Positions 11,091 through 63,398 of a stretch of 64,000 nucleotides of DNA are shown here, piece by piece. The position numbers were made by a program, and so were the translations under genes. The DNA is from Squalus acanthias (taxonomy: Eukaryota). A model generated the notes under the pieces. The model was given only the letters and a program-made list of their open reading frames with translations, ran no database searches and had not been told where the DNA came from. Position 1 is the first letter of the stretch; the number at the start of each line of letters is the position of its first letter. Location: positions 7,874,001-7,938,000 of the forward strand of contig CM059432.1 of assembly GCA_030390025.1 (NCBI GenBank), written 5' to 3'.

Positions 11091-11462
11091 GTCAACCGTG
11101 GCACAGTGGTGGCACTCTCGCCTCTGAGACAGGAGGCTTCAAACTCCACTCCAGGAAGAAAACTTAGGCCGACGCTCCCAGTGCAGTGCTGAGGGAGTGC
11201 TGCGCTGTCGGAGGTGCCGTCTTTCGGATGAGGCGTTAAACCGAGGCCCCGTCTGCCCCCTCAGGCGGACGTAAAAGATCCCATGAAACTATTTCGAAGA
11301 AGAGCAGGGGAGTTATCCCCGGTGCCTTGGGCCAATATTTAACCCTCGACCCACATCACTAAAAAAACAGATTATCTGGTCATTATCTCATCTGTATTTG
11401 TGGGAGCTTGCTGTGCACATATTGGCTGCTTCATTTCCAACGTTACAACAGTGACTGCACTT
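11091..11462 (+). mobile_element. SINE lacking its 3' tail, fused to the provirus remnant
   Basis: Head and body are present; the sequence switches to retroviral pol after ...GTGACTGCACTT. Confidence 0.85.
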
Positions 11463-13266
11463 TAGCAATGTCCAGCGGGCAATACGATTGCTACTCACTG
11501 TCCCATCTTTTATCCTCCCGTCCAATAGCATCTGTGTCGGGGTATGACATGTCAGTAAGGTTATTAAGGATGACCCCGTAAATAATTGGAAACGTTTGAC
11601 GGCCCAATAGCTCACCAAAAGGTGTCTTTCACAGTTCGAGTAACCACTCTCTACATCTGTCAGGACTCAGGAGGCATAAGCCACTGGCCTCAACTTGTCA
11701 TGCCGTTCTTGGAGCAACACTGCACTCAAACTATCCCCAGTAGCTGCTACCTCCAGATAAAAATCTTCGGTCCCGTTTATTGCTCCTAGTGCGGGTGCAG
11801 TTTGTTTAGGCGAGTAAATGCCTCCTTACAACTCTCATCCCATTCCCATCCTACTCCTTTCCTTCGGAGTCTAAGCAAAGGGGCTGTCGTGGCTGCATAG
11901 TTTTCAATAGCCTTCAATAAAATCCCTGCAATACCCTGTCATACCAAGAAAAGATCTCACCCCCGTTACACTCTTTGGAGCGGGTAGTGCCTGTACTGCC
12001 CTCCTCTTCACCTCATCTATAGCCCTTTCCCCTGCCCTAATCGTCAATCCGAAGAATTTCACCTCCTCCTGTCCTATTTGGGCTTTCTTGGGGTTTGCCT
12101 TAAACCCTGCCTCCCCGAACAGCTTTAGTAGCTCGTCCAGTAGTGGCCCGTGGTCCTCTGCACTTTCTGAGAATAATAATAGGTCATCCACGTACTGGAT
12201 CAACTGGCTAGGCTGACTGAAATTCTTTAAAGCATTAGCCATACACTGATGGAAAATCAAGGGCCTGTTATGAAACCCTTGTGGGAGGCACGTCCACGTA
12301 TACTGTTGCCCTTTGAATGTAAAGGCAAATTTATACTGATCCTCCCGTCTTACTGGGATAGACCAGAACCCGTTAGCTATGCCCAATACAGTGAACGTCA
12401 TTGCCTCCGCAGAGATATTCCCTATTAGATCGGCTACTGCTGCTACCGTGGGTGCGCATGCTGGAATACCTTTATTAAGAACCCGATAGTCTACCGTGGC
12501 TCTCCAAGACTGATCGAGCTTCTTAACTGGCCATAGGGGTGAATTTACTTGGGTCGCTATCGGCCTCAGTACCCCTTGTTCCACGAGGGAGCTCAGTGCA
12601 GTTTCCAAGTCCTTCTCTGCCTCCCGGGGAAAACTATACTGTTTCTGAGGTCGCCACATTGGGTCCCCGTGTACCTTCACCTCTACCCCCGTTACCCTAC
12701 CACAGTCATGTCGGTGAATGGCGAACACTGCGAGATTATTTTTCACATACCCCCTGATACCTTTCCGGGGTGCTACGGACCAATTGTTCCAAGTCATAGC
12801 TACCCTTCGGTTTCACAGTACAGGAGCTACCTTTCACTTTCCCCGCCTTGGGGATAACTAGAACTTCCTCAGGTTTATCTGAACCAACCGCCCCCCATAG
12901 ACAGTGGTTTCTCATATCCACGATCACATAGTGGGCCAGCATAAAATCAGCTCCGAGGACCCCCGCGCTGGGCTGATCCCATTGCATCAGTACACATTCC
13001 TACTTAGTAACAAGGGGTCCGAACCCTATAGACAAAGGTTTCGATACTGCCCCAGCCTGCTCGTTCCCTGTGAAACCCACTAACTTAAACGGGACCCTGC
13101 TCGACCATGGAGAAGTGGTCGGGTTTGGTGAGTGAACCACCGTACTGGAAGCTCCAATGTCCACTAGATACTTTCCCCGAACGGCCTCTACTCTGATCTC
13201 TACACAAGGTCTGCCCCACTCATCGTAGGTGAGCGGGCACAGGTACTCGGGTTGGGTGCATCCTAG
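11463..13266 (-). pseudogene. pol: pro-pol remnant: retropepsin, reverse transcriptase and RNase H-like connection domain; stops and frameshifts
   Basis: Protease YLVDIGASSTVV...GVLGADF. RT PQKQY, NSPLWPVKK, WRATVDYRVLNK, LPQGFHN, YVDDLL, VRSFLGMTGYCRDFI. Downstream LRPVAYAS...YSNCERHLL...RIARWTLL. Confidence 0.9.
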
Positions 13267-13677
13267 TCATGGGAGAAGTGGGGGCGCGCTGGGCTTTTCA
13301 CTGCATATGGCAGCGTCCAGCTTTCCCTGGTCTTTGCCCATAACCTGCCATAACGCGGTCACTAGAAGTTCCACCGGGTCTTCTACCCTCTCCTTCTCTG
13401 CCTCTACTACCCACGGTTTTGACCCTGAGGGACCCCCGTATCCTGGTTTTTTCCTTTTTGGGAACTTGCACTCCCTGTTCCAGTGTCCCATTCTCCCACA
13501 GTTAAAGCACGCCTGGGATCTGTCCACCTTACCCCCCTCCTGCTTCCATTCTTTTCTACCATCCACGCTTCCCTTCATCTCATGCACTTTTCCCATTTGT
13601 TTATTTTTTACTTTCCCAAACACATACGAGGATATCCTATCCTCCATCGTGGGTTTCTTGCACTTAACCCTGTCCAT
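13267..13677 (-). CDS. gag: Short Gag-like ORF (136 aa) with a nucleocapsid zinc knuckle
   Basis: CFNCGRMGHWNREC (CX2CX4HX4C) and a PSAP late-domain-like motif. Starts ~21 nt after the PBS. Confidence 0.75.
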   Translation of the reverse strand: MDRVKCKKPTMEDRISSYVFGKVKNKQMGKVHEMKGSVDGRKEWKQEGGKVDRSQACFNCGRMGHWNRECKFPKRKKPGYGGPSGSKPWVVEAEKERVEDPVELLVTALWQVMGKDQGKLDAAICSEKPSAPPLLP

Positions 13678-13698
13678 AATTTTGTTCTAAACCTTGAA

Positions 13699-13716
13699 GT
13701 CCTGCCGTGGTCGCCA
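13699..13716 (-). promoter_or_regulatory. Primer binding site, probably tRNA-Arg
   Basis: TGGCGACCACGGCAGGAC, 5 nt downstream of the LTR end. Its complement GTCCTGCCGTGGTCGCCA resembles the vertebrate tRNA-Arg(TCG) 3' end plus CCA (recalled). Confidence 0.8.
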
Positions 13717-13721
13717 GATTC

Positions 13722-14618
13722 TGTAAGGGGTTTTCTCCGATACTGATCCCCCGTTACACACAGTCCTTGGACATTAGGATTTATAAGAACAAAATACACA
13801 TGGCACAGGGTTTTGGCTCAAACTTTGATTCGTTCATTTATTGAACACACACACACACACAATTACCTCCCCAGTATAAATCCCTACGATTTATATTAGA
13901 CTAACAACCCCAAAATACAAACCCCTACGCAAGGGTCATTTGCATCGACACAATGTGACACAGTTAAACCCATCCGCGATTTGACTGTTACATATAAAGT
14001 TACCCAGACTCAATCACAAAACCCTTATTGTGATCTGACTGAAACTCACAAACTTACTCAGATTCAATCACAAAAGCCCCCTCTATGATTTGACTGAAAC
14101 ATACAATCACCACTCCCGATTGGCTGTCTCCTGGAGTTGATTGCAGGACCGAATCCTTCTGCTTGCTGTTCTTGCGTTAGCTCCCGACACCGTCTCTCTT
14201 CGAAGTGGCTTTTTTTCTTTATACCCAAAACCAACTTGCAATATCTTGAAACACATATCCTGGCCCCCCTCCTGTGCACACAAATGGCCGTATCAAAATG
14301 TGTGAATGTCTCTAGCAGAGAACTCTTGATGGCTAATTGTCCCTTGTATTGTCCATTGATTACTTGGGCACCGACTGTCTGTATTGAGGTCCTTTCTGAC
14401 AAAGCAACCTTCCCAAGGTGACTGCATAAGCTAGTTGTTGGTTTCTGTTAGCATTCGTATTCAAATGGTTCAGGGCCCGGCCCATTGTCTAGGCCTGCAC
14501 TGATACCAGCTGTTCTAGAGCCATGATCCAAGGTGGGCTTCTTTAACAATGTGACCCCTTAAGGTAAATGAATATGTGAATGTTCTTGTATCTTCCCCAG
14601 ACAGAAAACCTTCGTACA
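13722..14618 (-). repeat. 5' LTR (~897 bp)
   Basis: TG...CA ends with imperfect inverted termini TGTAAGGGGTTTTCT / AGAAAACCTTCGTACA. Minus-strand TATAAA at 14218-14223 and AATAAA at 13837-13842. Confidence 0.85.
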
Positions 14619-15037
14619 GCAATTCGGCCGCAATGTCTGAATTAACCCTTTATTGCCCAGCTCTTTTTGCGGGCTGTGCAGTTCTGGGTTTGCATACTTG
14701 AAGGGAAAACAGGGCTATGAGGAAAGAACGGGGAGGGGAGTACAACGAATTGGATAGCTCCTTCAAAGAGCCGGCACAATGGGCCGAATGGCCTCCTTCT
14801 GTGCTGTGAGATTCAATAGGAACATAGGAACAGGAGGAGGCCATTCAGCCCCTCGAGCCTGTTCCGCCATTCAATGAGATCACGGCTGATCTGCAACCTA
14901 ACTCCATATGATTTTAACTGGGAATCACTTTAATATAAAGTAAGATAAGAAACTCAGCTATAGCTGAGATACAGCGATAGGCTTCACTTATATTTGTGCC
15001 TCTATTGATTTATACTCTGTTACTTACCTCAAAGGCT

Positions 15038-33629: not shown

Positions 33630-34896
33630 TTACTCCCAGCACAGAGACACTGCTCCCAGCAGAGAAACACTATTCCCATCACGGAGACACCAGTCCCAGC
33701 ACAGACTCCCAGCACAGAGACACTGCTCCCAGCACGGAGACCCGATTCCTAGCAGAGACACTGCTTCCAGCACAGAGACACTATTCCCAGCGCAGAGAGA
33801 CACTGTTCCAGCAGAGAGACACTATTCCCAGCACAGAGAGACACTGTTCCAGCAGAGACACTGCTTCCAGCAGATACACTATTCCCAGCACAGAGAGACA
33901 CTGTTCCAGCAGAGAGACACTATTACCAGCACAGAGAGACACTGTTCCAGCACAGAGACACTATTAACATAGAAGATAGGAGCAGGAGTAGGCCATTCGG
34001 CCCCTCGAGCCTGTTCCACCATTCAATGAGATCATGGCTGATCATCCAAATTCAGTACCCTGTCCCTGCTTTCTCCCCATATCCTTTGATCCCTTTAGCC
34101 TTAAGAAATATATCTAACTCCTTCTTGAATATATTTAATGAATTGGCCTCAACTGCCTTCTGTGGTAGAGAATTCCACAGGTTCACCACTCTCTGGGTGA
34201 AGAAATTCCTCCTCATCTCAGTCCTAAATGGCTTACCCCTTATCCTTAGACTGTGATCCCTGGTTCTGGACTCCCCCACCATCGGGAACATTCCTAGCAC
34301 AGAGATACTATTCCCAGCAGAGACACTGCTCCCAGCAGAGAGACACTATTCCCAGCACAGAGAGACTTCTCCCAGCACAGAGACATGGCTCCCAGCACAT
34401 AGACACTATTCCCAGCACAGATACACTATTCCAGGTACAGAGAGACTGCTCCCAGCAGAGAGAGAACTACTCCCAGCAGAGATACACTATTCCCAGCACA
34501 GAGACACTGCTCCCAGCACAGAGACACTGCTCCCAGCACAGAGAGACACTACTCCCAGCAGAGAGACACTATTCCCAGCACAGAGACACTGCTCCCAGCA
34601 TAGAGAGATACTGCTCCCAGCACAGAGACACTGCTCCCAGCACAAAGACACTATTCCCAGCACAGATACACTATTCCCAGCACATAGACACTGCTCCCAG
34701 CACATACACTATTCCCAGCACAGAGACTGCTCCCAGCAGAGAGAGAACTACTCCCAGCAGAGAGACACTATTCCCAGCACAGAGACACTATTCCCAGCAC
34801 AGACACTGTTCCCAGCAGAGACATGCTATTCCCAGCAGATAATCATTATTCCCAGCACAGAGAATCATTATTCCCAGCACAGAGACACTATTCCCA
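33630..34896. repeat. ~18-22 bp minisatellite (CCCAGCACAGAGACACT-ATT/GCT)n interrupted by a CR1 3' fragment (~33966-34294, -)
   Basis: Tandem units are directly visible on both sides of the CR1. Confidence 0.9.
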
Positions 34897-34979: not shown

Positions 34980-35370
34980 CAGAAAGAGAGAGAGAGGAGA
35001 GAAGGGAGGAGAGGGAGAAGGAGGGATAGTCAGACAGAGAGAGAGAAGGGAGAGAGAGGAGAGGGAGGCGAGAGAGTAAAGAGAGAGGGAGAGAGAGACA
35101 GAGAGAAGGGAGGAGAGAGAGAAGGGAGGAGAGAGAGAGGAGAGACAGACACAGAGAGAGAGAGAGAGGAGGGAAGGCGAGACCGAGAGAGGAGGGGTGG
35201 ATAGACTGGGAGGAGAGAGAGAGGAGGAAGAGGAGGAGAGACGGAGACAGAGCGAAGGGGGGAGAGAGAGAGAGAGAGAGACAGAGGCAGAGAGAAGGGA
35301 GGAGAGAGAGAGAGAGAGAGAAAGGAGGAGAGAGAGGGAGGGAGGAGAGGAGAGAAGAGAGAGGAGGAGA
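34980..35370. repeat. Polypurine (GA-rich) low-complexity tract
   Basis: About 390 bp, almost exclusively G/A on the + strand. Confidence 0.9.
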
Positions 35371-35618
35371 GCCGGAGCCGCCGGGCGATGGGGACGAGCC
35401 ATGAAGATCTGGCTGTAAAGTTTGGGAGTCGGGTCCCGGCAGATGCAGTGTGGAAGCTCTTGTGGCGGAGTTGGTGAGCCTGGAGCCGGAGGATCGGGGT
35501 CTGGCGGAGCCGCCACTGAACTCTCTCCCTCTGATGTCCCCACCTCCAGCGATCGATCGGATCTCCAGCGCGGTCCACCCCAGAGCAGCAGCGGGCTGAT
35601 CCGAGTTGAGATGTAAAC

Positions 35619-37684: not shown

Positions 37685-40600
37685 GAATGTGTTGAGGTCG
37701 TAGGTCGTAAGATGGGTTGAGGTCATAGGATGTGTTCAGGCTGTAGGATGTGTTGAGGCTGTAAGATGCATTGATGCTGTAGGATGTGTTGAGATTGTAG
37801 GATGTGTTGAGGCTGTAGGATGTCTTGAGGCTGTAGGATGTGTTGAGGCTGTAGGATGTGTTGAGGCTGTAGGATGTGTTCAGGCTGTAAGATGCATTGA
37901 GGCTGTAGGATGTGTTGAGATTGTAGGATGTGTTGAGGCTGTAGGATGTCTTGAGGCTGTAGGATGTGTTGAGGCTGTAGGATGTGCTGAGGCTGTAGGA
38001 TGTGTTGAGATTGTAGGATGTGTTGAGGCTGTAGGATGTCTTGAGGCTGTAGGATGTGTTGAGGCTGTAGGATGTGTTGAGGCTGTAGGATGTGTTGAGA
38101 TTGTAGGATGTGTTGAGGCTGTAGGATGTGTTGAGGCTGTAGGATGTGTTGAGGCTGTAGGATGTGTTGAGGCTGTAGGATGTGTTGAGATTGTAGGATG
38201 TGTTGAGGCTGTAGGATGTCTTGAGGCTGTAGGATGCATTGAGTTAGTAGGATGTGTTGAGATTGTAGGATGTGTTGAGGCTGTAGGATGCGTTGAGTTA
38301 GTAGGATGTGTTGAGATTGTAGGATGTGCTGAGGCTGTAGGATGCGTTGAGGCTGTAGGATGTGTTGAGGCTGTAGGATGTGTTGAGGCTGTAGGATGTG
38401 TTGAGGCTGTAGGATGTGATGAGGCTGTAGGATGTGCTGAGGCTGTAGGATGTGTTGAGGCTGTAGGATGTGTTGGGGCTGTAGGATGTGTTGAGGCTGG
38501 AGGATATGTTGAGGCTGTAGGATGTGTTGAGGCTGGAGGATGTGTTGAGGCTGGAGGATGTGTTGAGGCTGTAGGATGTGTTGAGGCTGGAGGATGTGTT
38601 GGGGCTGTAGGATGTGTTGAGGCTGTAGGATGTGCTGAGGCTGTAGGATGTGTTGGGGCTGGAGGATGAGTTGAGGTAGTGGGATGAGTTGAGGCTGGAG
38701 GATGTGTTGAGGCTGGAGGATGTGTTGAGGTAGTGGGATGAGTTGAGGCTGGAGGATGTGTTGAGGTTGTAGGATGTGTTGAGGCTGGAGGATGTGTTGG
38801 GGCTGGAGGATGTGTTGAGATTGTAGGATGTGTTGAGGTTTTAGGATGTGTTGAGGCTGTAGGATGTGTTGAGGCTGTAGGATGTGTTGAGGCTGTAGGA
38901 TGTGTTCAGGCTGTAGGATGTGTTGGGGCTGGAGGATGTGTTGAGGCTGTAGGATGTGTTGGGGCTGGAGGATGTGTTGAGGCTGTAGGATGCGTTGAGG
39001 CTGTAGGATGTGTTGAGGCTGTAGGATGTGTTGAGATTGTAGGATGTGTTGAGGCTGTAGGATGTCTTGAGGCTGTAGGATGCATTGAGTTAGTAGGATG
39101 TGTTGAGATTGTAGGATGTGCTGAGGCTGTAGGATGCGTTGAGGCTGTAGGATGTGTTGAGGCTGTAGGATGTGTTGAGGCTGTAGGATGTGATGAGGCT
39201 GTAGGATGTGTTGAGGCTGTAGGATGTGTTGAGGCTGTAGGATGTGTTGGGGCTGTAGGATGTGTTGAGGCTGTAGGATGTGATGAGGCTGTAGGATGTG
39301 TTGAGGCTGTAGGATGTGTTGAGGCTGGAGGATGTGTTGAGGCTGTAGGATGTGTTGGGGCTGTAGGATGTGTTGAGGCTGGAGGATGTGTTGAGGCTGT
39401 AGGATGTGTTGGGGCTGTAGGATGTGTTGAGGCTGGAGGATGTGTTGAGGCTGTAGGATGTGTTGAGGCTGTAGGATGTGCTGAGGCTGTAGGATGTGTT
39501 GGGGCTGGAGGATGAGTTGAGGTAGTGGGATGAGTCGAGGCTGGAGGATGTGTTGAGGCTGGAGGATGTGTTGAGGTAGTGGGATGAGTTGAGGCTGGAG
39601 GATGTGTTGAGGTTGTAGGATGTGTTGAGGCTGGAGGATGTGTTGAGGCTGGAGGATGTGTTGAGGCTGTAGGATGTGTTGAGGCTGTAGGATGTGTTGA
39701 GGCTGTAGGATGTGTTGGGGCTGGAGGATGAGTTGAGGTAGTGGGATGAGTCGAGGCTGTAGGATGTCTTGAGGCTGTAGGATGCATTGAGTTAGTAGGA
39801 TGTGTTGAGATTGTAGGATGTGCTGAGGCTATAGGATGCGTTGAGGCTGTAGGATGTGTTGAGGCTGTAGGATGTGTTGGGGCTGTAGGATGTGTTGAGG
39901 CTGGAGGATGTGTTGAGGCTGTAGGATGTGTTGAGGCTGTAGGATGTGCTGAGGCTGTAGGATGTGTTGGGGCTGGAGGATGAGTTGAGGTAGTGGGATG
40001 AGTCGAGGCTGTAGGATGTGTTGAGGCTGTAGGATGTGTTGGGGCTGTAGGATGAGTCGAGGCTGTAGGATGTGTTGGGGCTGTAGGATGAGTCGAGGCT
40101 GGAGGATGTGTTGAGGCTGGAGGATGTGTTGAGGTAGTGGGATGAGTTGAGGCTGGAGGATGTGTTGAGGTTGTAGGATGTGTTGAGGCTGGAGGATGTG
40201 TTGGGGCTGGAGGATGTGTTGAGATTGTAGGATGTGTTGAGGCTGTAGGATGTGTTGAGGCTGTAGGATGTGTTGAGGCTGTAGGATGTGTTGAGGCTGT
40301 AGGATGTGTTGGGGCTGGAGGATGAGTTGAGGTAGTGGGATGAGTCGAGGCTGGAGGATGTGTTGAGGCTGGAGGATGTGTTGAGGTAGTGGGATGAGTT
40401 GAGGCTGGAGGATGTGTTGAGGCTGTAGGATGTGTTGAGGCTGTAGGATGTGTTGAGGCTGTAGCATGTGTTGGGGCTGGAGGATGTGTTGAGGCTGTAG
40501 GATGTGTTGGGGCTGTAGGATGTGTTGAGGCTGGAGGATATGTTGGGGCTGTAGGATGTGTTGAGGCTGTAGGATGTGTTGAGGCTGTAGGATATGTTGA

Positions 40601-41585
40601 GGCTGTAGGATGTGTTGAGGCTGGAGGATGTGTTGAGGCTGTAGGATGTGTTGAGGCTGGAGGATGCATTGAGGCTGTCGGATGTGTTGAGATTGTAGGA
40701 TGCGTTGAGGCTGTAGGATGTGTTGAGGCTGTAGGATGTGTTGAGGCTGTAGGATGTGTTGAGGCTGTAGGATGTGCTGAGGCTGTAGGATGTGATGAGG
40801 CTGTAGGATGTGTTGGGGCTGGAGGATGTGTTGAGATTGTAGGATGCGTTGAGGCTGTAGGATGTGTTGAGATTGTAGGATGCGTTGAGGCTGTAGGATG
40901 TGCTGAGGCTGTAGGATGTGTTGAGGCTGTAGAATGTGTTGGGGCTGGAGGATGTGTTGAGATTGTAGGATGTGTTGAGGCTGGAGGATGTGTTGAGATT
41001 GTAGGATGTGATGCGGCTGTAGGATGTGTTGGGGCTGTAGGATGTGTTGAGGCTGTAGGATGTGTTGAGATTGTAGGATGTGTTGAGGCTGTAGGATGTG
41101 TTGAGGCTGGAGGATGTGTTGAGATTGTAGGATGTGTTGAGGTTGTAGGATGTGTTGAGGCTGTAGGATGTGTTGGGGCTGGAGGATGTGTTGAGATTGT
41201 AGGATGTGTTGAGATTGTAGGATGTGTTGAGGCTGGAGGATGTGTTGAGGCTGGAGGATGAGTTGAGGCTGTAGGATGTGTTGAGGCTGTAGGATGTGTT
41301 GAGGCTGTAGGATGTGTTGAGGCTGTAGGATGTGTTGAGGCTGGAGGATGAGTTGAGGCTGTAGGGTGTGTTGAGGCTGTAGGATGAGTTGAGGCTGGAG
41401 GATGTGTTGAGGCTGTAGGATGTGTTGAGATTGTAGGATGTGTTGAGGCTGGAGGATGTGTTGAGATTGTAGGATGTGTTGAGGCTGGAGGATGTGTTGG
41501 GGCTGTAGGATATGTTGGGGCTGTAGGATGTGTTGAGGCTGTAGGATGTGTTGAGGCTGGAGGATGTGTTGGGGCTGTAGGATGC
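37685..41585. repeat. 18-bp minisatellite (GAGGCTGTAGGATGTGTT)n, ~215 units
   Basis: Register is kept from 37741 to 41521 (3780 bp = 210 x 18). Confidence 0.97.
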
Positions 41586-52339: not shown

Positions 52340-53370
52340 ATTTAGGTCCTGGGGCTGTGATGATTGATCTTCAACCACCACAACCATATTCCTTTCTGCT
52401 AGGTATGACTCCAGCCAGTGGAGTGTTTTACTCCCGATTCCCATTGACTTCAGTTTTACTAGGACTTCTTGATGCCACACTCAGTCAAATGCTGCCTTGA
52501 TGTCAAGGGCAGTCACTCTCACCTCACCTCTGGAATTCAGCTCCTTTGTCCATGTTTGGACCAAGGCTGTAATGAGGTCGGGAGCCGAGTGGTCTTGGCG
52601 GAACCCAAACTGGGCATCAGTGAGCAGGTTATTGGTGAGTAAGTGCCACTTAATAGCACTGTCGATGACACCTTCCATCACTTTGCTGATGATTGAGAGT
52701 AGACTGATGGGGCGGTAATTGGCCAGGTTGGATTTGTCCTGCTTTTTGTGGACAGGACATACCTGTGCAGTTTTCCATATTGTCGGATAGATGCCAGTGT
52801 TGTAGCTGTAGTGGAACAGCTTGGCTAGAGGCGCGGCTCGTTCTGGAGCACAAATCTTCAGCATGACAGCCAGGATGTTGTCGGGGCCCATAGCTTTTGT
52901 TGTATCCAGTGCGCGCAGCCGTTTCTTGATATCACATGGAGTGAATCGAATTGGCTGAAGACTGGCTTCTGTGATGGTGGGGACTTCAGGAGTAGGCCGA
53001 TATGGATCATCCACTCGGCACTTCTGGCTGAAGATGGTTGCAAACGCTTCAGCTTTGTCTTTTGCACTCACGTGCTGGGCTCCACCATCATTGAGGATGG
53101 GGATATTCATGGAGCCTCCTCCTCCCGATAGTTGTTTAATGGTCCACCACCATTCACGACTGGATGTGGCAGGACTGCAGAGCTTTGATCTGATCCGTTG
53201 ATTGTGGGATCGCTTAGCCCTGTCTATAGCATGCTGCTTCTACTTTTTAGCATGCATGTCGTCCTGTGTTGCAGCTTCCCCAGGTTGGCACCTCATTTTT
53301 AGGTATGCCTGGTGCTGCTGCTGGCACGCTCTGCTACACTCCTTATTGAACCAGGGTTGGTCCCCTGGCA
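52340..53370 (-). mobile_element. CR1/L2-group LINE internal ORF2 fragment
   Basis: KAMGPDNI, PVHKKQDKSNLANYRPISLLSIISKVME, QFGFR, ALDIKAAFD. Same family as 61838-63398. Confidence 0.88.
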
Positions 53371-57144: not shown

Positions 57145-57373
57145 TAAAAACAGAAAATGCTGGAAATACTCAGCAGGTCAGGCAGCATCTGTGGAGAGAG
57201 AAACAGAGTTAACGTTTCAGGTCGATGACCCTTCGTCAGAATTGACAAAGGGTCATCGACCTGAAACGTTAACTCTGTTTCTCTCTCCACAGATGCTGCC
57301 TGACCTGCTGAGTATTTCCAGCATTTTCTGTTTTTATTTCAGATTTCCAGCATCCGCAGTATTTTGCTTTTGT
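57145..57373. mobile_element. Penelope-like insertion: inverted pair of terminal repeats with hammerhead cores
   Basis: Arms 57143-57238 and 57243-57338. 15-bp TSD ATTTATGAAAAGGAA / ATTTGTGAAAGGGAA at 57130-57144 and 57374-57388. Confidence 0.8.
57207..57243 (-). ncRNA. Putative minimal type I hammerhead ribozyme motif
   Basis: AAUU-CUGACGA-AG-GGUC(AUC)GACC-U-GAAA-CGUU^AACU: CUGANGA and GAAA boxes, stem II, palindromic ACGU stem III, NUH site GUU. Stem I is weak. Confidence 0.55.
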
Positions 57374-59894
57374 ATTTGTGAAAGGGAAGTTGTGTTCGAT
57401 GAATCTGTTAGAGATTTTTGAGGTTGTAACTAGCAGAATAGATAAGGGGGAACCAGTGGATGTGGTGTATTTGGATTTTCAGAAGGCATTCGATAAGGCG
57501 CCACACAAGAGGTTATTAAACAAAATTAGGGCGCATGGGATTGGGGGTAATATACTAGCATGGATTGAGGATTGGTTAACGGACAGAAAACAGAGAGTAG
57601 GAATAAACGGGTTATTTTCAGGTTGGCAGGCTGTAACTAGTGGGGTACCGCAAGGATCAGTGCTTGGGCCTCAGCTATTCACAATCTACATCAATGATTT
57701 GGATGAGGGGACCAAGTGTAATATATCCAAGTTTGCTGATGATACAAAGCTGGGTGGGCATGTAAGTTGTGAGGAGGATGCGAGGAGGCTTCAAGGGGAT
57801 ATAGACAGGCTAAGTGAGTGGTCAAGAACATGGCAAATGGAATATAATATGGAGAAATGTGAAGTTATCCACTTTGGTCGGAAAAATAGAAAAGCAGAGT
57901 ATTTTTTAAATGGTGAGAGATTGGGAAATGTTGGTGTTCAGAGGGACCTGGGTGTCCTTGTACGCGAATCACTGAAAGTTAACATGCAGGTACAGCAAGC
58001 AATTAGGAAAGCAAATGGTATATTGGCCTTTATTACAAGAGGATTTGAGTATAAGAGTAAAGACATCTTACTGCAATTATATAGGGCCCTGGTGAGACCA
58101 CACCTGGAGTATTGTGTACAGTTTTGGTCTCCTTACCTAAGGAAGGATATATTTGCCATAGAGGGAGTGTGACGAAGGTTCACCAGACTGGTTCCTGGGA
58201 TGGGGGGATTGTCCTATGAGGAGAGATTGAGTAGACTAGGCCTATATTCTCTAGAGTTTAGAAGAATGAGAGGTGATCTCATTGAAACATACAAAATTCT
58301 TACAGGGCTTGACAGGGTAGATGCAGGGAGGATGTTTCCCCTGGCTGGGGAGTCTAGAACCAGGGGGCCACAGTCTCAGAATAAGGGGTCGGCCATTTAG
58401 GACTGAGATGAGGAGAAATTTCTTCACTCAGAGGGTGGTGAATCTTTGGAACTCTCTCCCCCAGAGGGTTGTCGAGGCTCAGTCGTTGAGTATTTTCAGG
58501 ACAGAGATCGATAGATTTTTGGATGTTAAGGGAATCGAGGGATATGGGGATCGGGCAGGAAAGTGGAGATGAGGTAGAAAATCAGCCATGATCTTATTGA
58601 ATGGCGGAGCAGGCTCGAGGGGCCAAGTGGCCTACTCCTGCTCCTATTTCTTATGTTCTTTGTAATCTTGACAACTATGCAGATTGCCTGGAGGCCTTCT
58701 TCGGTTACTGCCTCCAGCTAAACCTTAGCCTCCTAATGCACTGCTTGCTCTTCAGTCAGTCGCAGGTGCTTGGGATGCCTGAGCTGATGGATAGTGCAGC
58801 AATGAGCCCAGTGCCACCTTCCATCTCTCTCAGCGTTTTCTCCTCCCTGCTGATTGCAGCCAACTCAAGTGCATAAGGAATCAGTTATTGCAATCCTCAT
58901 TGTGATGGGCACATAAAACAAGGTTGTTGGTTGGAAACTCCATAAAAGTCACAAGTTCACTACACCAGCCCGAGGCCAGAAAGCCGGCCCGCCTTGCGGT
59001 GCCCGTGCTACACGGGCGGCAGGAACGGCACCAGACGTGGGGTACGGAAGCTGCGCCAATCGCCTCGTGCCCCCCAGTTGAGCCTCAGTTACCTCAGCAC
59101 CAATGGCCTGATTGCAGTCGTGCCCAGAAGCCTCCTTCGTGGCCAACTGCGTGGAACAGAGCGTAGGCTGATCGGGAAAAACGTACGCCACGCTTCCCTC
59201 CTGATCTAGCTGGCCCATTGACCTGAATTTACGGCTGCCTTCAGGCTCTGTGCTGACACTAACTTCTGGATTATGGGTTCTTTTAAGTCTAACTGAATCG
59301 TGGTAATGTACTTCATGCAACAGTGCGCTTGTCAATTAAGATTAAGGGATTGATAGAGTGGACCTTTAATCTTGTCCTTTCTTGTTATTGATCCCAATGC
59401 TTAATTTAACCAAGTTGCATTCACATTCATTAAGGACAATTAGCACTGAGCCCGAGAAAGCACTCAGCAAATGAGCATCCGCATTGCATGTGAATCCTCT
59501 TGAGTTCCATCGATAATGATTAGATCTCTCTCTTGCCCTTTGATCTTATTCTATTGTAACTGAGAGACAGCCATTGGAATGTCACCTCTACCCAGGAGAA
59601 AATTGTGTTATCACAGAGGATACTGCCACAGCGGCGGTAATTCATACACGATCCTTCTTTCTCATTTCTGTGCATGTTAGATGTTCAGCTGGTGTGATAT
59701 TTCAATCGAATGTGCCTCTTCATTTTGCGAGCAGTTATCCAGCAGGCTTTCAATCAGTCTACTTTATACTGCATTAGTGCTGTGAATCCATGTTTGAAAC
59801 CTACCGGAGTCTTTTACTGGTATTGACTGATTTGATTTTCACTGCAAAGAAATAAAATTCAACAAATCCTTCTCCAAAATATGGAACTAATTTG

Positions 59895-61837: not shown

Positions 61838-63398
61838 TTTTTATGGGATGTGGGCGTCGCTGGCAAGGCCAGCATTTATTGCCCATCCTTAGTTGCCCTT
61901 GAGAAGGTGGTGATGAGCTGCCTTCTTGAACTGCTGCAGTCCATGTGGTGAAGGTGCTCCCACAGTGCTGTTAGGGAGGGAGTTCCAGGATTTTGACCCA
62001 GCGACGATGAAGGATCGGCGATATACTTCCGAGTCGGGATGGTGTGTGACTTGGATGGGAACTTCGAGGTGGTGGTGTTCTCATGCGCCTGCTGCCCTTG
62101 TCCTAGGTGGAAGAGGTCACGGGTTTGGGAGGTGCTGCCGAAGAAGCCTTGGCGAGTTGCTGCAGTGCCTCTTGTAGATGGTACACACTGCAGCCACGGT
62201 GCGCCGGTGGTGGAGGGAGTGAATGTTTAAGGTGGTGGATGGGGTGCCAATCAAGCGGGATGCTTTGTCCTGGATGGTGTCAAGCTTCTTGCGTGTTGTT
62301 GAAGCTGCACTCATCCAGGCAAGTGGAGAGTATTCCATCACACTCCTTACTTGTGCCTTGTAGATGGTGGAAAGTCTTTGGGGAGTCAGGAGGTGAGACA
62401 CTCGCCGCAGAATACCTAGCCTCTGACCTGCTCTTGAAGCCACAGTATTTATGTGGCTGGTCCAGTTAAGTTTCTGGTCAATGGTGACCCCCAGGATGTT
62501 GATGGTGGGGGATTTGGCGATGCTAATGCCATTGAATGTCAAGGGGCAGTGGTTAGACTCTCGCTTGTTGGAGATAGTCATTGCCTGGCACTTCTGTGGC
62601 GCGAATGTTACCTGCCACTTATCAGCCCAAGCCTGAACGTCGTCCAGGTCTTGTTGCATGCGGGCATGGACTGATTCATTATCTGAGGAGTTGTGAATGG
62701 CGCTGAACACTGTGCAGTCATCAGCGAACATCCCCATTTCTGACCTTATGTTGGAGGGAAAGTCGTTGATGAAGCAGCTGAAGATGGTTGGGCCTTGGAC
62801 ACTGCCCTGAGGAACTCCTGCAGCGATGTCCTGGGGCTGTGATGATTGACCTTCAACCACTGCAACCATCTTCCTTTGTGCTAGGTATGACTCCAGCCAG
62901 TGGAGAGTTCACCCCCCCCTGCCCCCCCGAGTCCCATTGACTTTAGTTTTACTCGGGCTCCTTGATGCCACACTCGGTCAAATGCTGCCTTGATATCAAG
63001 GGCAGTCACTCTCACCTCACCTCTGGAATTCAGCTCTTTTGTCCATGTTTGGACCAAGGCTGTAATGAGGTCGGGAGCCGAGTGGTCTTGGCGGAACCCA
63101 AACTGGGCATCAGTGAGCAGGTTATTGGTGAGTAAGTGCCGCTTGAAAGCACTGTCGATGACACCTTCCATCACTTTGCTGATGATTGAGAGTAGACTGA
63201 TGGGGCGATAATTGGCCAGGTTGGATTTGTCCTGCTTTTTGTGGACAGGACATACTTGGGCAGTTTTCCATCTTGTCGGATAGATGCCAGTGTTGTAGTT
63301 GTACTGGAACAGCTTGGCTAGAGGCGCGGCTAGGTCTGGAGCACAAGTCTTCAGCAACGACAGCCGGGATGTTGTCGGGGCCCAGAGCCTTTGCTTGT
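61838..63398 (-). mobile_element. CR1/L2-group LINE, 1.5-kb 3' part with RT domain (clade not resolved)
   Basis: NYRPISLLS, LDIKAAFDRVWH, GVPQGSVQGP, MFADDC, WADKWQVTFAPQKC. Frameshift at the poly-C around 62912-62929. Confidence 0.9.

Follow-up and report, generated by a model that had tools for sequence, protein, structure and literature searches.

How does a retrovirus-like element make its Pol proteins when gag and pro-pol share one reading frame that is divided by a single stop codon? The question arises at a locus on the minus strand of a 64,000-nucleotide stretch of the Squalus acanthias genome (contig CM059432.1, positions 7,874,001 to 7,938,000), which we call the window and number from its first letter. 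At the end of gag, the element found there, a decayed endogenous retrovirus (ERV), reads CCA TGA CTA GGA TGC, with the TGA at 13269-13267 and the CTAG at 13266-13263. The original prediction for this locus was that the TGA ends Gag, that the same frame continues into the protease and that Gag-Pol is made by suppression of UGA-CUAG. The placement of the stop and the frame is confirmed by the sequence, with a zinc knuckle upstream and a retroviral protease (RVP) match downstream, and the peptide quoted across the junction is exact. A single frame leads from the CCHC knuckle of the Gag nucleocapsid (NC) through PSAPPLLP to the TGA, and then for 36 codons to the Asp of the protease catalytic motif.

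This is the arrangement of type II readthrough, in that UGA is followed by CUA and the downstream open reading frame (ORF) is in frame and has no start of its own: an in-frame check of the window element found no ATG in the 36 codons between the TGA and the protease Asp. That UGA-CUA(G) is a readthrough context of alphaviruses and vertebrate genes, as had also been stated, is supported by a 2026 review in which it is a proven context in alphaviruses and human genes, in the latter of which UGACUAG has a basal readthrough of no less than about 1.3% (PMC13517186; published work is cited here from the portions of each source available to us). Counting both strands of the window, CTAG follows 4 of 2449 TGA triplets, and CTA follows 23.

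Our conclusion from the analysis set out below is that the active ancestor of this element probably made Gag-Pol by UGA readthrough; granted that the stop is inherited, readthrough becomes a distinctly likely route. Most ribosomes would halt at the TGA and release Gag, while a few percent would decode the UGA through a near-cognate tRNA and continue in frame to give Gag-Pro-Pol. In the subfamily of the window copy, the leak would probably be supplied by CUAG at +4 to +7, which we narrowly favour as the main readthrough signal, and a predicted hairpin 25 nt downstream would perhaps assist, a role that we regard as doubtful. Since pol lies in the zero frame and no ATG precedes the Asp, frameshifting is unneeded and reinitiation unlikely; together with the lack of a listed indel at the junction, the zero frame of pol leads us to reject frameshifting.

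Whether the stop codon is inherited

The window copy is dead, carrying in-frame stops in the protease (13002-13000) and the tether (11669-11667) and three frame breaks in pol, so the window alone cannot establish that the TGA is original. That is supplied by comparison with assembled contigs. Part of the element is contained in 20 of the 24 listed runs, the 16 larger shares of which carry eight organism labels between them; no RNA run is listed among the holders, which has no bearing on expression. Contigs of four of these runs (X1, X3, X4 and X11; four labels, three studies) were aligned to 12700-13750 at 80% likeness. Contigs unlike the window are clipped in this procedure and do not enter the counts. 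The results below come from 40 listed variant rows of 369 and from 24 listed loose-end strings of 211.

The protease stop demonstrates that this method can see decay in the window copy, since at its middle base, 13001, a different letter makes up 100% of depth in three of the runs and 90% in the other; other copies lack this stop. At the gag terminator, no listed variant row falls on 13261-13285, while rows are present at 13252, 13257, 13259, 13260, 13286 and 13287, and depth at 13260 is 523, 742, 217 and 101. The lowest best-run share among 14 recomputed variant rows is 0.46, from which we infer that a majority variant at TGA-CTAG would have been listed, and hence, from its absence among the listed rows, that TGA-CTAG is the majority state in each of the four runs. 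Nor is there an indel row between 13121 and 13280 among those listed (12 of 14), which argues that the common gag-pro frame is original. Two X11 contigs start exactly at 13270, probably because the assembly graph branches deeper in gag rather than because the stop varies.

Copies more divergent than these appear as loose ends, and three consensus strings behind 13251/13256, among those listed, were read by hand. Two of them come from X11, one built from 4 contigs with an agreement of 0.74 and one from 6 with 0.68, and both place a TGA precisely at 13269-13267; in place of CTAG, the letters behind it are AGGG in one and TGGG in the other. Because these ends keep the TGA with other letters behind it, CTAG is a trait of a subfamily and not of the whole lineage. 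Further afield, P0088, a Gag relative at 31% identity, terminates 6 residues past its PSAP, while the window Gag ends 4 residues past its own. Taken together, these comparisons make it very likely that gag originally terminated at the TGA. Of the original prediction, then, what survives alignment of the junctions is the TGA, which is apparently kept in most copies; CUAG, which it had ascribed to the lineage as a whole, does not hold for all of it, since two divergent ends have TGA with other letters and a third has no stop at that codon. An origin of the stop by decay after insertion, which it had named as its own refutation, is contradicted by the lack of any listed variant there in four runs.

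The third string, from X1, belongs to a divergent, high-depth subfamily that has its protease start in common with the window, and which may have a longer linker or a different route to Pol.

Readthrough weighed against other routes to Pol

A number of observations weigh against inherited UGA-CUAG readthrough. The X1 loose end (4 contigs, behind 13256) has no stop at the matching place or in the five preceding codons, and no stop divides the Gag-like part from the protease in the coelacanth gene model P0007, although predicted splicing may account for that. CTAG is missing from both of the divergent ends that retain TGA. Clipping of unlike contigs biases the count toward CTAG, minor stop variants are possible among the 329 further rows, and the source of the window may itself be among the four runs. 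As for the signal itself, all four proline codons, placed before the stop, brought UGA-CUAG readthrough to the level of the negative control in AQP4, MAPK10 and OPRK1 reporters (bioRxiv 10.64898/2026.07.14.738498), a result from human cells with no viral 3′ structure present; the codon before the window TGA is proline, and this argues against a strong signal consisting of CUAG only. Downstream, the 156-nt region is no more stably folded than shuffled sequence (z +0.60), folding reveals no structure starting 8-16 nt past the stop, the spacing typical of known stimulators, and Rfam yields no match in 12900-14700.

Were the TGA a sense codon of a single gag-pol frame that decayed after insertion, with CTAG there by coincidence, the missing stop in X1 and in P0007 would be expected, and the window copy is indeed damaged elsewhere, with stops in frame at two more places and pol broken out of frame three times; some lokiretroviruses, moreover, have one gag-pol ORF (Loki-Pma). 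We nevertheless find this among the least credible courses of events, given that the protease stop is contradicted by nearly all depth in four of four runs and the TGA by no listed row, that the TGA stands at the same codon in two divergent ends, that P0088 terminates at the matching place, and that CTAG so seldom stands behind a TGA. Better placed, though still unlikely, is the proposal that readthrough is real but depends on an RNA structure downstream of the stop, or on a trans factor, in the manner of murine leukaemia virus, with CUAG incidental or minor; it overlaps with our preferred explanation, being the same readthrough with a different signal. The TGA is constant while +4 to +7 varies between the divergent ends, as this proposal would have it, and the contexts of the UGA or UAG in other retroviruses of fish and amphibians are varied (PMC13517186). 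The downstream stem-loop for which folding had been suggested does exist as a prediction, the 12-bp hairpin at 13242-13211, and that much favours a structural signal. Yet it starts 25 nt from the stop and has weak support, its z of -2.9 being the best local value out of 28 windows and one matched by other windows of the element. CTAG, for its part, is the exact optimum motif and recurs in a subgroup of lokiretroviruses.

If instead the TGA were a true terminator, Pol could come from a spliced mRNA in which the stop is skipped by joining a gag donor to the AG within CTAG, loosely as in foamy viruses, or splicing and readthrough could share the site. Of 95 YAG sites in the element, that of CTAG has the most pyrimidine-rich upstream sequence by a crude score (12 of 16; the next has 11), the proline codon before the stop disfavours readthrough, and foamy-type proteins are the best solved-structure matches of the reverse transcriptase (RT). 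The pyrimidine run, however, is accounted for by the codons of PSAPPLLP, and in the two divergent ends with a TGA no YAG stands in the same phase; for these two reasons we grade splicing low, as very improbable. In addition, CTAA in Loki-Bsp retains the readthrough core while shifting the AG, and CUAA works in one human gene; foamy viruses have a separate pol start codon (PMC8278194), and none was found here. To the specific proposal that TGA-CTAG does double duty, as a leaky stop and as a 3′ splice acceptor fusing part of Gag to Pro-Pol, we likewise attach a small probability. If it were true, this deep-branching lineage would stand midway between retroviruses that use readthrough and foamy viruses, whose pol is spliced, and a second example would be the lokiretrovirus subgroup in which this heptamer follows a C-rich tract. 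There remains reinitiation or internal initiation past a true gag stop, or reading of the UGA as selenocysteine, which we hold to be as implausible as decay. Predicted Pols of relatives do begin at a Met within the protease region; these starts are choices of the gene caller, and they cut the conserved N-terminal protease strand (PL...GRP.V in P0007, P0084 and P0104), while the window has no in-frame ATG there. As regards selenocysteine, the possible place of a selenocysteine insertion sequence is the 3′ end of the element, which is missing from the window, and 12900-14700 is the region in which Rfam found nothing.

The element, its placement and its surroundings

The element has the domain order gag, protease (PR), RT, with an RT of retroviral type, and is a decayed, internally deleted copy of a multi-copy vertebrate ERV family outside the gamma/epsilon group. 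Its features are collected in Table 1.

Table 1. Features of the element and of its gag-pro junction, in window coordinates
Feature	Positions	Strand	Basis
Tether (degenerate RNase H), in pieces	11463..11938	-	Pfam; element end at interspersed repeat near 11462
RT (YVDD), open for 302 codons; out of frame with protease from a break near 12750-12755	11907..12812	-	Pfam RVT_1, E 2e-29
Protease region in gag frame; Asp codon 13161-13159; in-frame stop 13002-13000	12750..13266	-	RVP
Predicted 12-bp hairpin beginning 25 nt past the stop, weak support	13211..13242	-	Folding
CTAG, the type II readthrough context, at +4 to +7; the AG in it doubles as a YAG splice-acceptor-like site	13263..13266	-	Sequence
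In-frame TGA terminating gag, proline codon before it	13267..13269	-	Sequence; variant-free among listed rows in four runs
Gag remnant, ATG at 13677; N-terminal piece fused in frame to NC region	13270..13677	-	P0088 match
PSAP late-domain-like motif close to the Gag C-terminus, also in P0088	13282..13293	-	Motif
Single CCHC zinc knuckle of Gag NC	13468..13509	-	Pfam PF00098 zf-CCHC, E 3.9e-06
Primer binding site (PBS)-like 18-mer, begins TGG	13699..13716	-	Sequence
3′ part of presumed 5′ long terminal repeat (LTR); AATAAA at 13842, end ...TACA at 13722; outer boundary candidates 13992 or 14548	13722..13992	-	Motif scan, sequence

The 5′ LTR is a presumed one because no second LTR was found in the window. 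The PBS-like 18-mer is putatively of tRNA-Arg(UCG) type, and an Arg PBS would resemble that of the group related to snakehead retrovirus (SnRV). ARAGORN finds no tRNA in the window. Site 13708 within the 18-mer is two-state, the other letter making up 98, 39, 57 and 9% of depth across the four runs, and the contigs behind this variant could also stem from tRNA genes.

The window gag matches residues 14-50 and 490-613 of the 619-residue P0088, and thus has a large in-frame internal deletion near 13606 (∼470 codons relative to P0088). Among the rows listed, loose contig ends fall at 13605 in three of the four runs and at 13607 in two. The deletion (13605-13607) joins two similar GKV-encoding stretches, which suggests that it arose by template switching at microhomology. 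For the role of the PSAP motif we refer to PMC8278194 (Table 2). The protease match is weak (RVP, E 0.009, below the Pfam cut-off), and the catalytic motif of the window copy is DIG (13159-13153), a codon of which deviates from most other copies in all four runs (rows 13156 and 13157) and is a further sign of decay. Among solved structures, the RT matches PR-RT-RNase H proteins of foamy-virus type best, and those of murine leukaemia virus type next. The 64-kb window contains no RNase H, integrase, env or 3′ LTR, the tether alone remaining of the RNase H pair, and no second copy of the element.

Placement rests largely on the RT, which has 73% identity to P0002, a Pol from Logan, and ∼50% to frog and coelacanth proteins labelled NYNRIN-like. 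P0002 carries both RNase H domains (tether and RNase H) and integrase, and a whale-shark protein has a 52%-identical stretch at the protease end. In a tree of 56 RT rows, made without SnRV, foamy, lokiretrovirus, CmiERV or named walleye dermal sarcoma virus (WDSV) or SSSV (salmon swim bladder sarcoma virus) rows, the window RT stands beside the NYNRIN-like proteins with weak support (93/80) and outside the starred class I-type clade of 33 rows. Approximately unbiased (AU) tests were made on 30 rows, with group labels that are our own; fragments and near-duplicates among the hits were omitted from both sets of rows. A grouping with gammaretroviruses/class I is rejected (p-AU 3.3e-09), as is one with the fish class I rows P0026, P0035 and P0038 (p-AU 0.0009), whose epsilon-like label is again ours. 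An ERV-L-type grouping was not recovered in the tree and is not rejected (p-AU 0.11); L001, L012 and P0073 are taken as the ERV-L-type rows.

The zinc knuckle bears on placement as well. Gag of ERV3/ERV-L (class III in the narrow sense) has no zinc finger, and the unclassified group related to SnRV (clade Huo and CmiERV lineage I) allows one (PMC4299795, the former in its Table 1); the zf-CCHC of the window Gag thus speaks against ERV3/ERV-L in the narrow sense and excludes ERV4. The NYNRIN-like labels prompted us to consider a lokiretrovirus assignment, which we dropped after reading the RT motifs by eye, and no PFG-type RT motif occurs among the RT proteins listed. Four frog and coelacanth Pols (P0004, P0006, P0007 and P0008) combine a retrovirus-type RT with an integrase tail that by eye is lokiretrovirus-like and with a NYNRIN-like label; these possibly represent a poorly described lineage.

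A weak search for a relative with fused Gag-Pol found none among 1458 candidates of 554-2000 residues, and none of 77 phmmer hits had its best stretch spanning the stop. The sole match to P0088 of near its length is P0088 itself, and with this query the ESM Atlas returned just generic retrotransposon-Gag clusters. Viral contigs gave no match by protein, alignment or junction pattern, and metagenome contigs no match to the junction protein; alignment of the RT to the latter gave 22 loci, all 25-40% identical, and among the 17 whose junctions were checked none was of the window family.

Elsewhere in the window, an 18-bp tandem array occupies 37707-41584 (215 copies, 88% matches), with strong GC skew and long spurious ORFs lacking a Pfam match, and 20-bp minisatellite blocks and an AG-rich run lie at 33633-34896 and 34981-35371. 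Three more RT fragments (Pfam RVT_1), at 52481-53239, 57312-58172 and 62117-62908, are probably decayed long interspersed nuclear elements. Interspersed repeats of 300-550 bp are numerous in 1-33000.

Comparison with known stop-suppression systems

Suppression of a stop codon is a known and expected way for a retrovirus to make Pol, and the general picture is unchanged by a further element that would do so; what is apparently new for retroviruses is the UGA-CUAG signal. In the literature searched, mostly outside subscription journals, we found no report of UGA-CUA(G) at a retroviral gag-pol junction, and term searches of the available parts of PMC9040795, PMC10435555 and PMC12193657 found nothing on this junction. 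UGA-CUA(G) is placed in alphaviruses, a triatovirus, plant viruses and host genes (PMC13517186; Firth et al., PMC3159437), and the available text of the former lists UGACUA solely for alphaviruses, a triatovirus and host genes. If the window junction is what we take it to be, it would bring type II readthrough into the reverse-transcribing viruses. The family would also constitute a natural series, with the same TGA, three 3′ contexts and an unfavourable proline, bearing on how a ratio of Gag to Gag-Pol is set without a pseudoknot.

The use of UGA is in itself less unusual for a retrovirus-like element than had been supposed. SSSV (UGAAGA), zebrafish endogenous retrovirus (ZFERV; UGACGA), the toad ERV RMEV (UGAAGU) and SnRV (UAGGGC) share with the window element an aquatic host and an in-frame stop between NC and protease, which is UGA in the first three; none of the four has UGACUA in the junctions given (PMC13517186). 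Readthrough in these fish and amphibian retroviruses is inferred, and for epsilonretroviruses lacks experimental verification (PMC13517186). SnRV has one gag-pro-pol frame (Jern et al., PMC1224870), an ERV lineage of the elephant shark clusters with it (PMC4422223), and clade Huo is present across all vertebrate groups (PMC6001957). A further in-frame UGA is that of XtERV-S, a class III element of Xenopus tropicalis, in which one frame is split by TGA with suppression proposed, and which also has PSAP near the Gag C-terminus and a short leader (PMC8278194; the comparison stops short of the letters past the TGA). Unlike the window element, with its CCHC knuckle and YVDD, XtERV-S has no zinc knuckle, has YIDD and a dUTPase, and has a tRNA-Ser PBS.

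Moloney murine leukaemia virus, a gammaretrovirus using type III readthrough, likewise has a single gag-pro-pol frame with a suppressed stop. Gammaretroviruses differ in having UAG-GG and a pseudoknot, and in the intact gamma-type loci examined the stop stands 27-29 codons before the Asp. Closer to the 36 codons of the window are two bird-type class III loci, the only two reaching the junction, with an in-frame TAG 37 codons before the Asp. These loci (L012:1906 and L019:2525 regions) read TAG-AGGGGC, and one X11 loose end is similar, with TGA-AGGGGC. Beyond retroviruses, Tj1 of Schizosaccharomyces japonicus, a fungal Ty3/Gypsy element, separates gag from an AUG-less pol by a stop that transposition requires, and the deletion mutant bears the name TGAx (PMC4600332; here the 3′ context lies outside the comparison). 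The identical UGA-CUA(G) is found in the alphaviruses Sindbis virus (SINV), o'nyong-nyong virus (ONNV) and chikungunya virus (CHIKV) and in human AQP4, OPRK1 and MAPK10 (PMC13517186; PMC3159437; bioRxiv 10.64898/2026.07.14.738498). These are unrelated genes, and the alphaviruses have an extended stem-loop that starts at about +9 to +16, of a kind not seen here.

The nearest parallel in the signal comes from lokiretroviruses. The supplement of PMC7947760, as available to us, contains 17 TGACTAG strings, of which four are gag ends (Ofa, Cne, Pyo and Sau) that by eye are in frame into the pol side, and 13 are not junctions; Loki-Bsp, also by eye, has TGA-CTAA in frame with the same linker. TGA-CTA thus ends gag in all five junction-containing consensus sequences of one subgroup; the consensus of a sixth member, Loki-Ape, has no gag, Loki-Pma has a single gag-pol ORF, and the comparison does not extend to eight further Loki entries with a separate pol gene. 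In that paper, Ofa, Cne, Pyo, Sau and Bsp are annotated as having separate gag and pol, the main text contains neither "stop codon" nor "frameshift", and the one Chondrichthyes row read in the supplement has no lokiretrovirus.

The window element shares with these five a TGA-CTA(G) gag end in frame with a pol-side linker, and its nearest full Pol, P0002, shares the dual RNase H layout of lokiretroviruses. The relatives of the window element are annotated NYNRIN-like, and the lokiretrovirus integrase is related to CGIN1; lokiretroviruses also have a long protease-RT spacer, unlike the window element. Since the RT motifs differ by eye (RCPFGYSNSP and PLSRWPM in Loki-Pma, CLPQGFHN and PACAPTV in the window), the comparison suggests that the window family and a subgroup of lokiretroviruses would have used UGA-CUA(G) in parallel.

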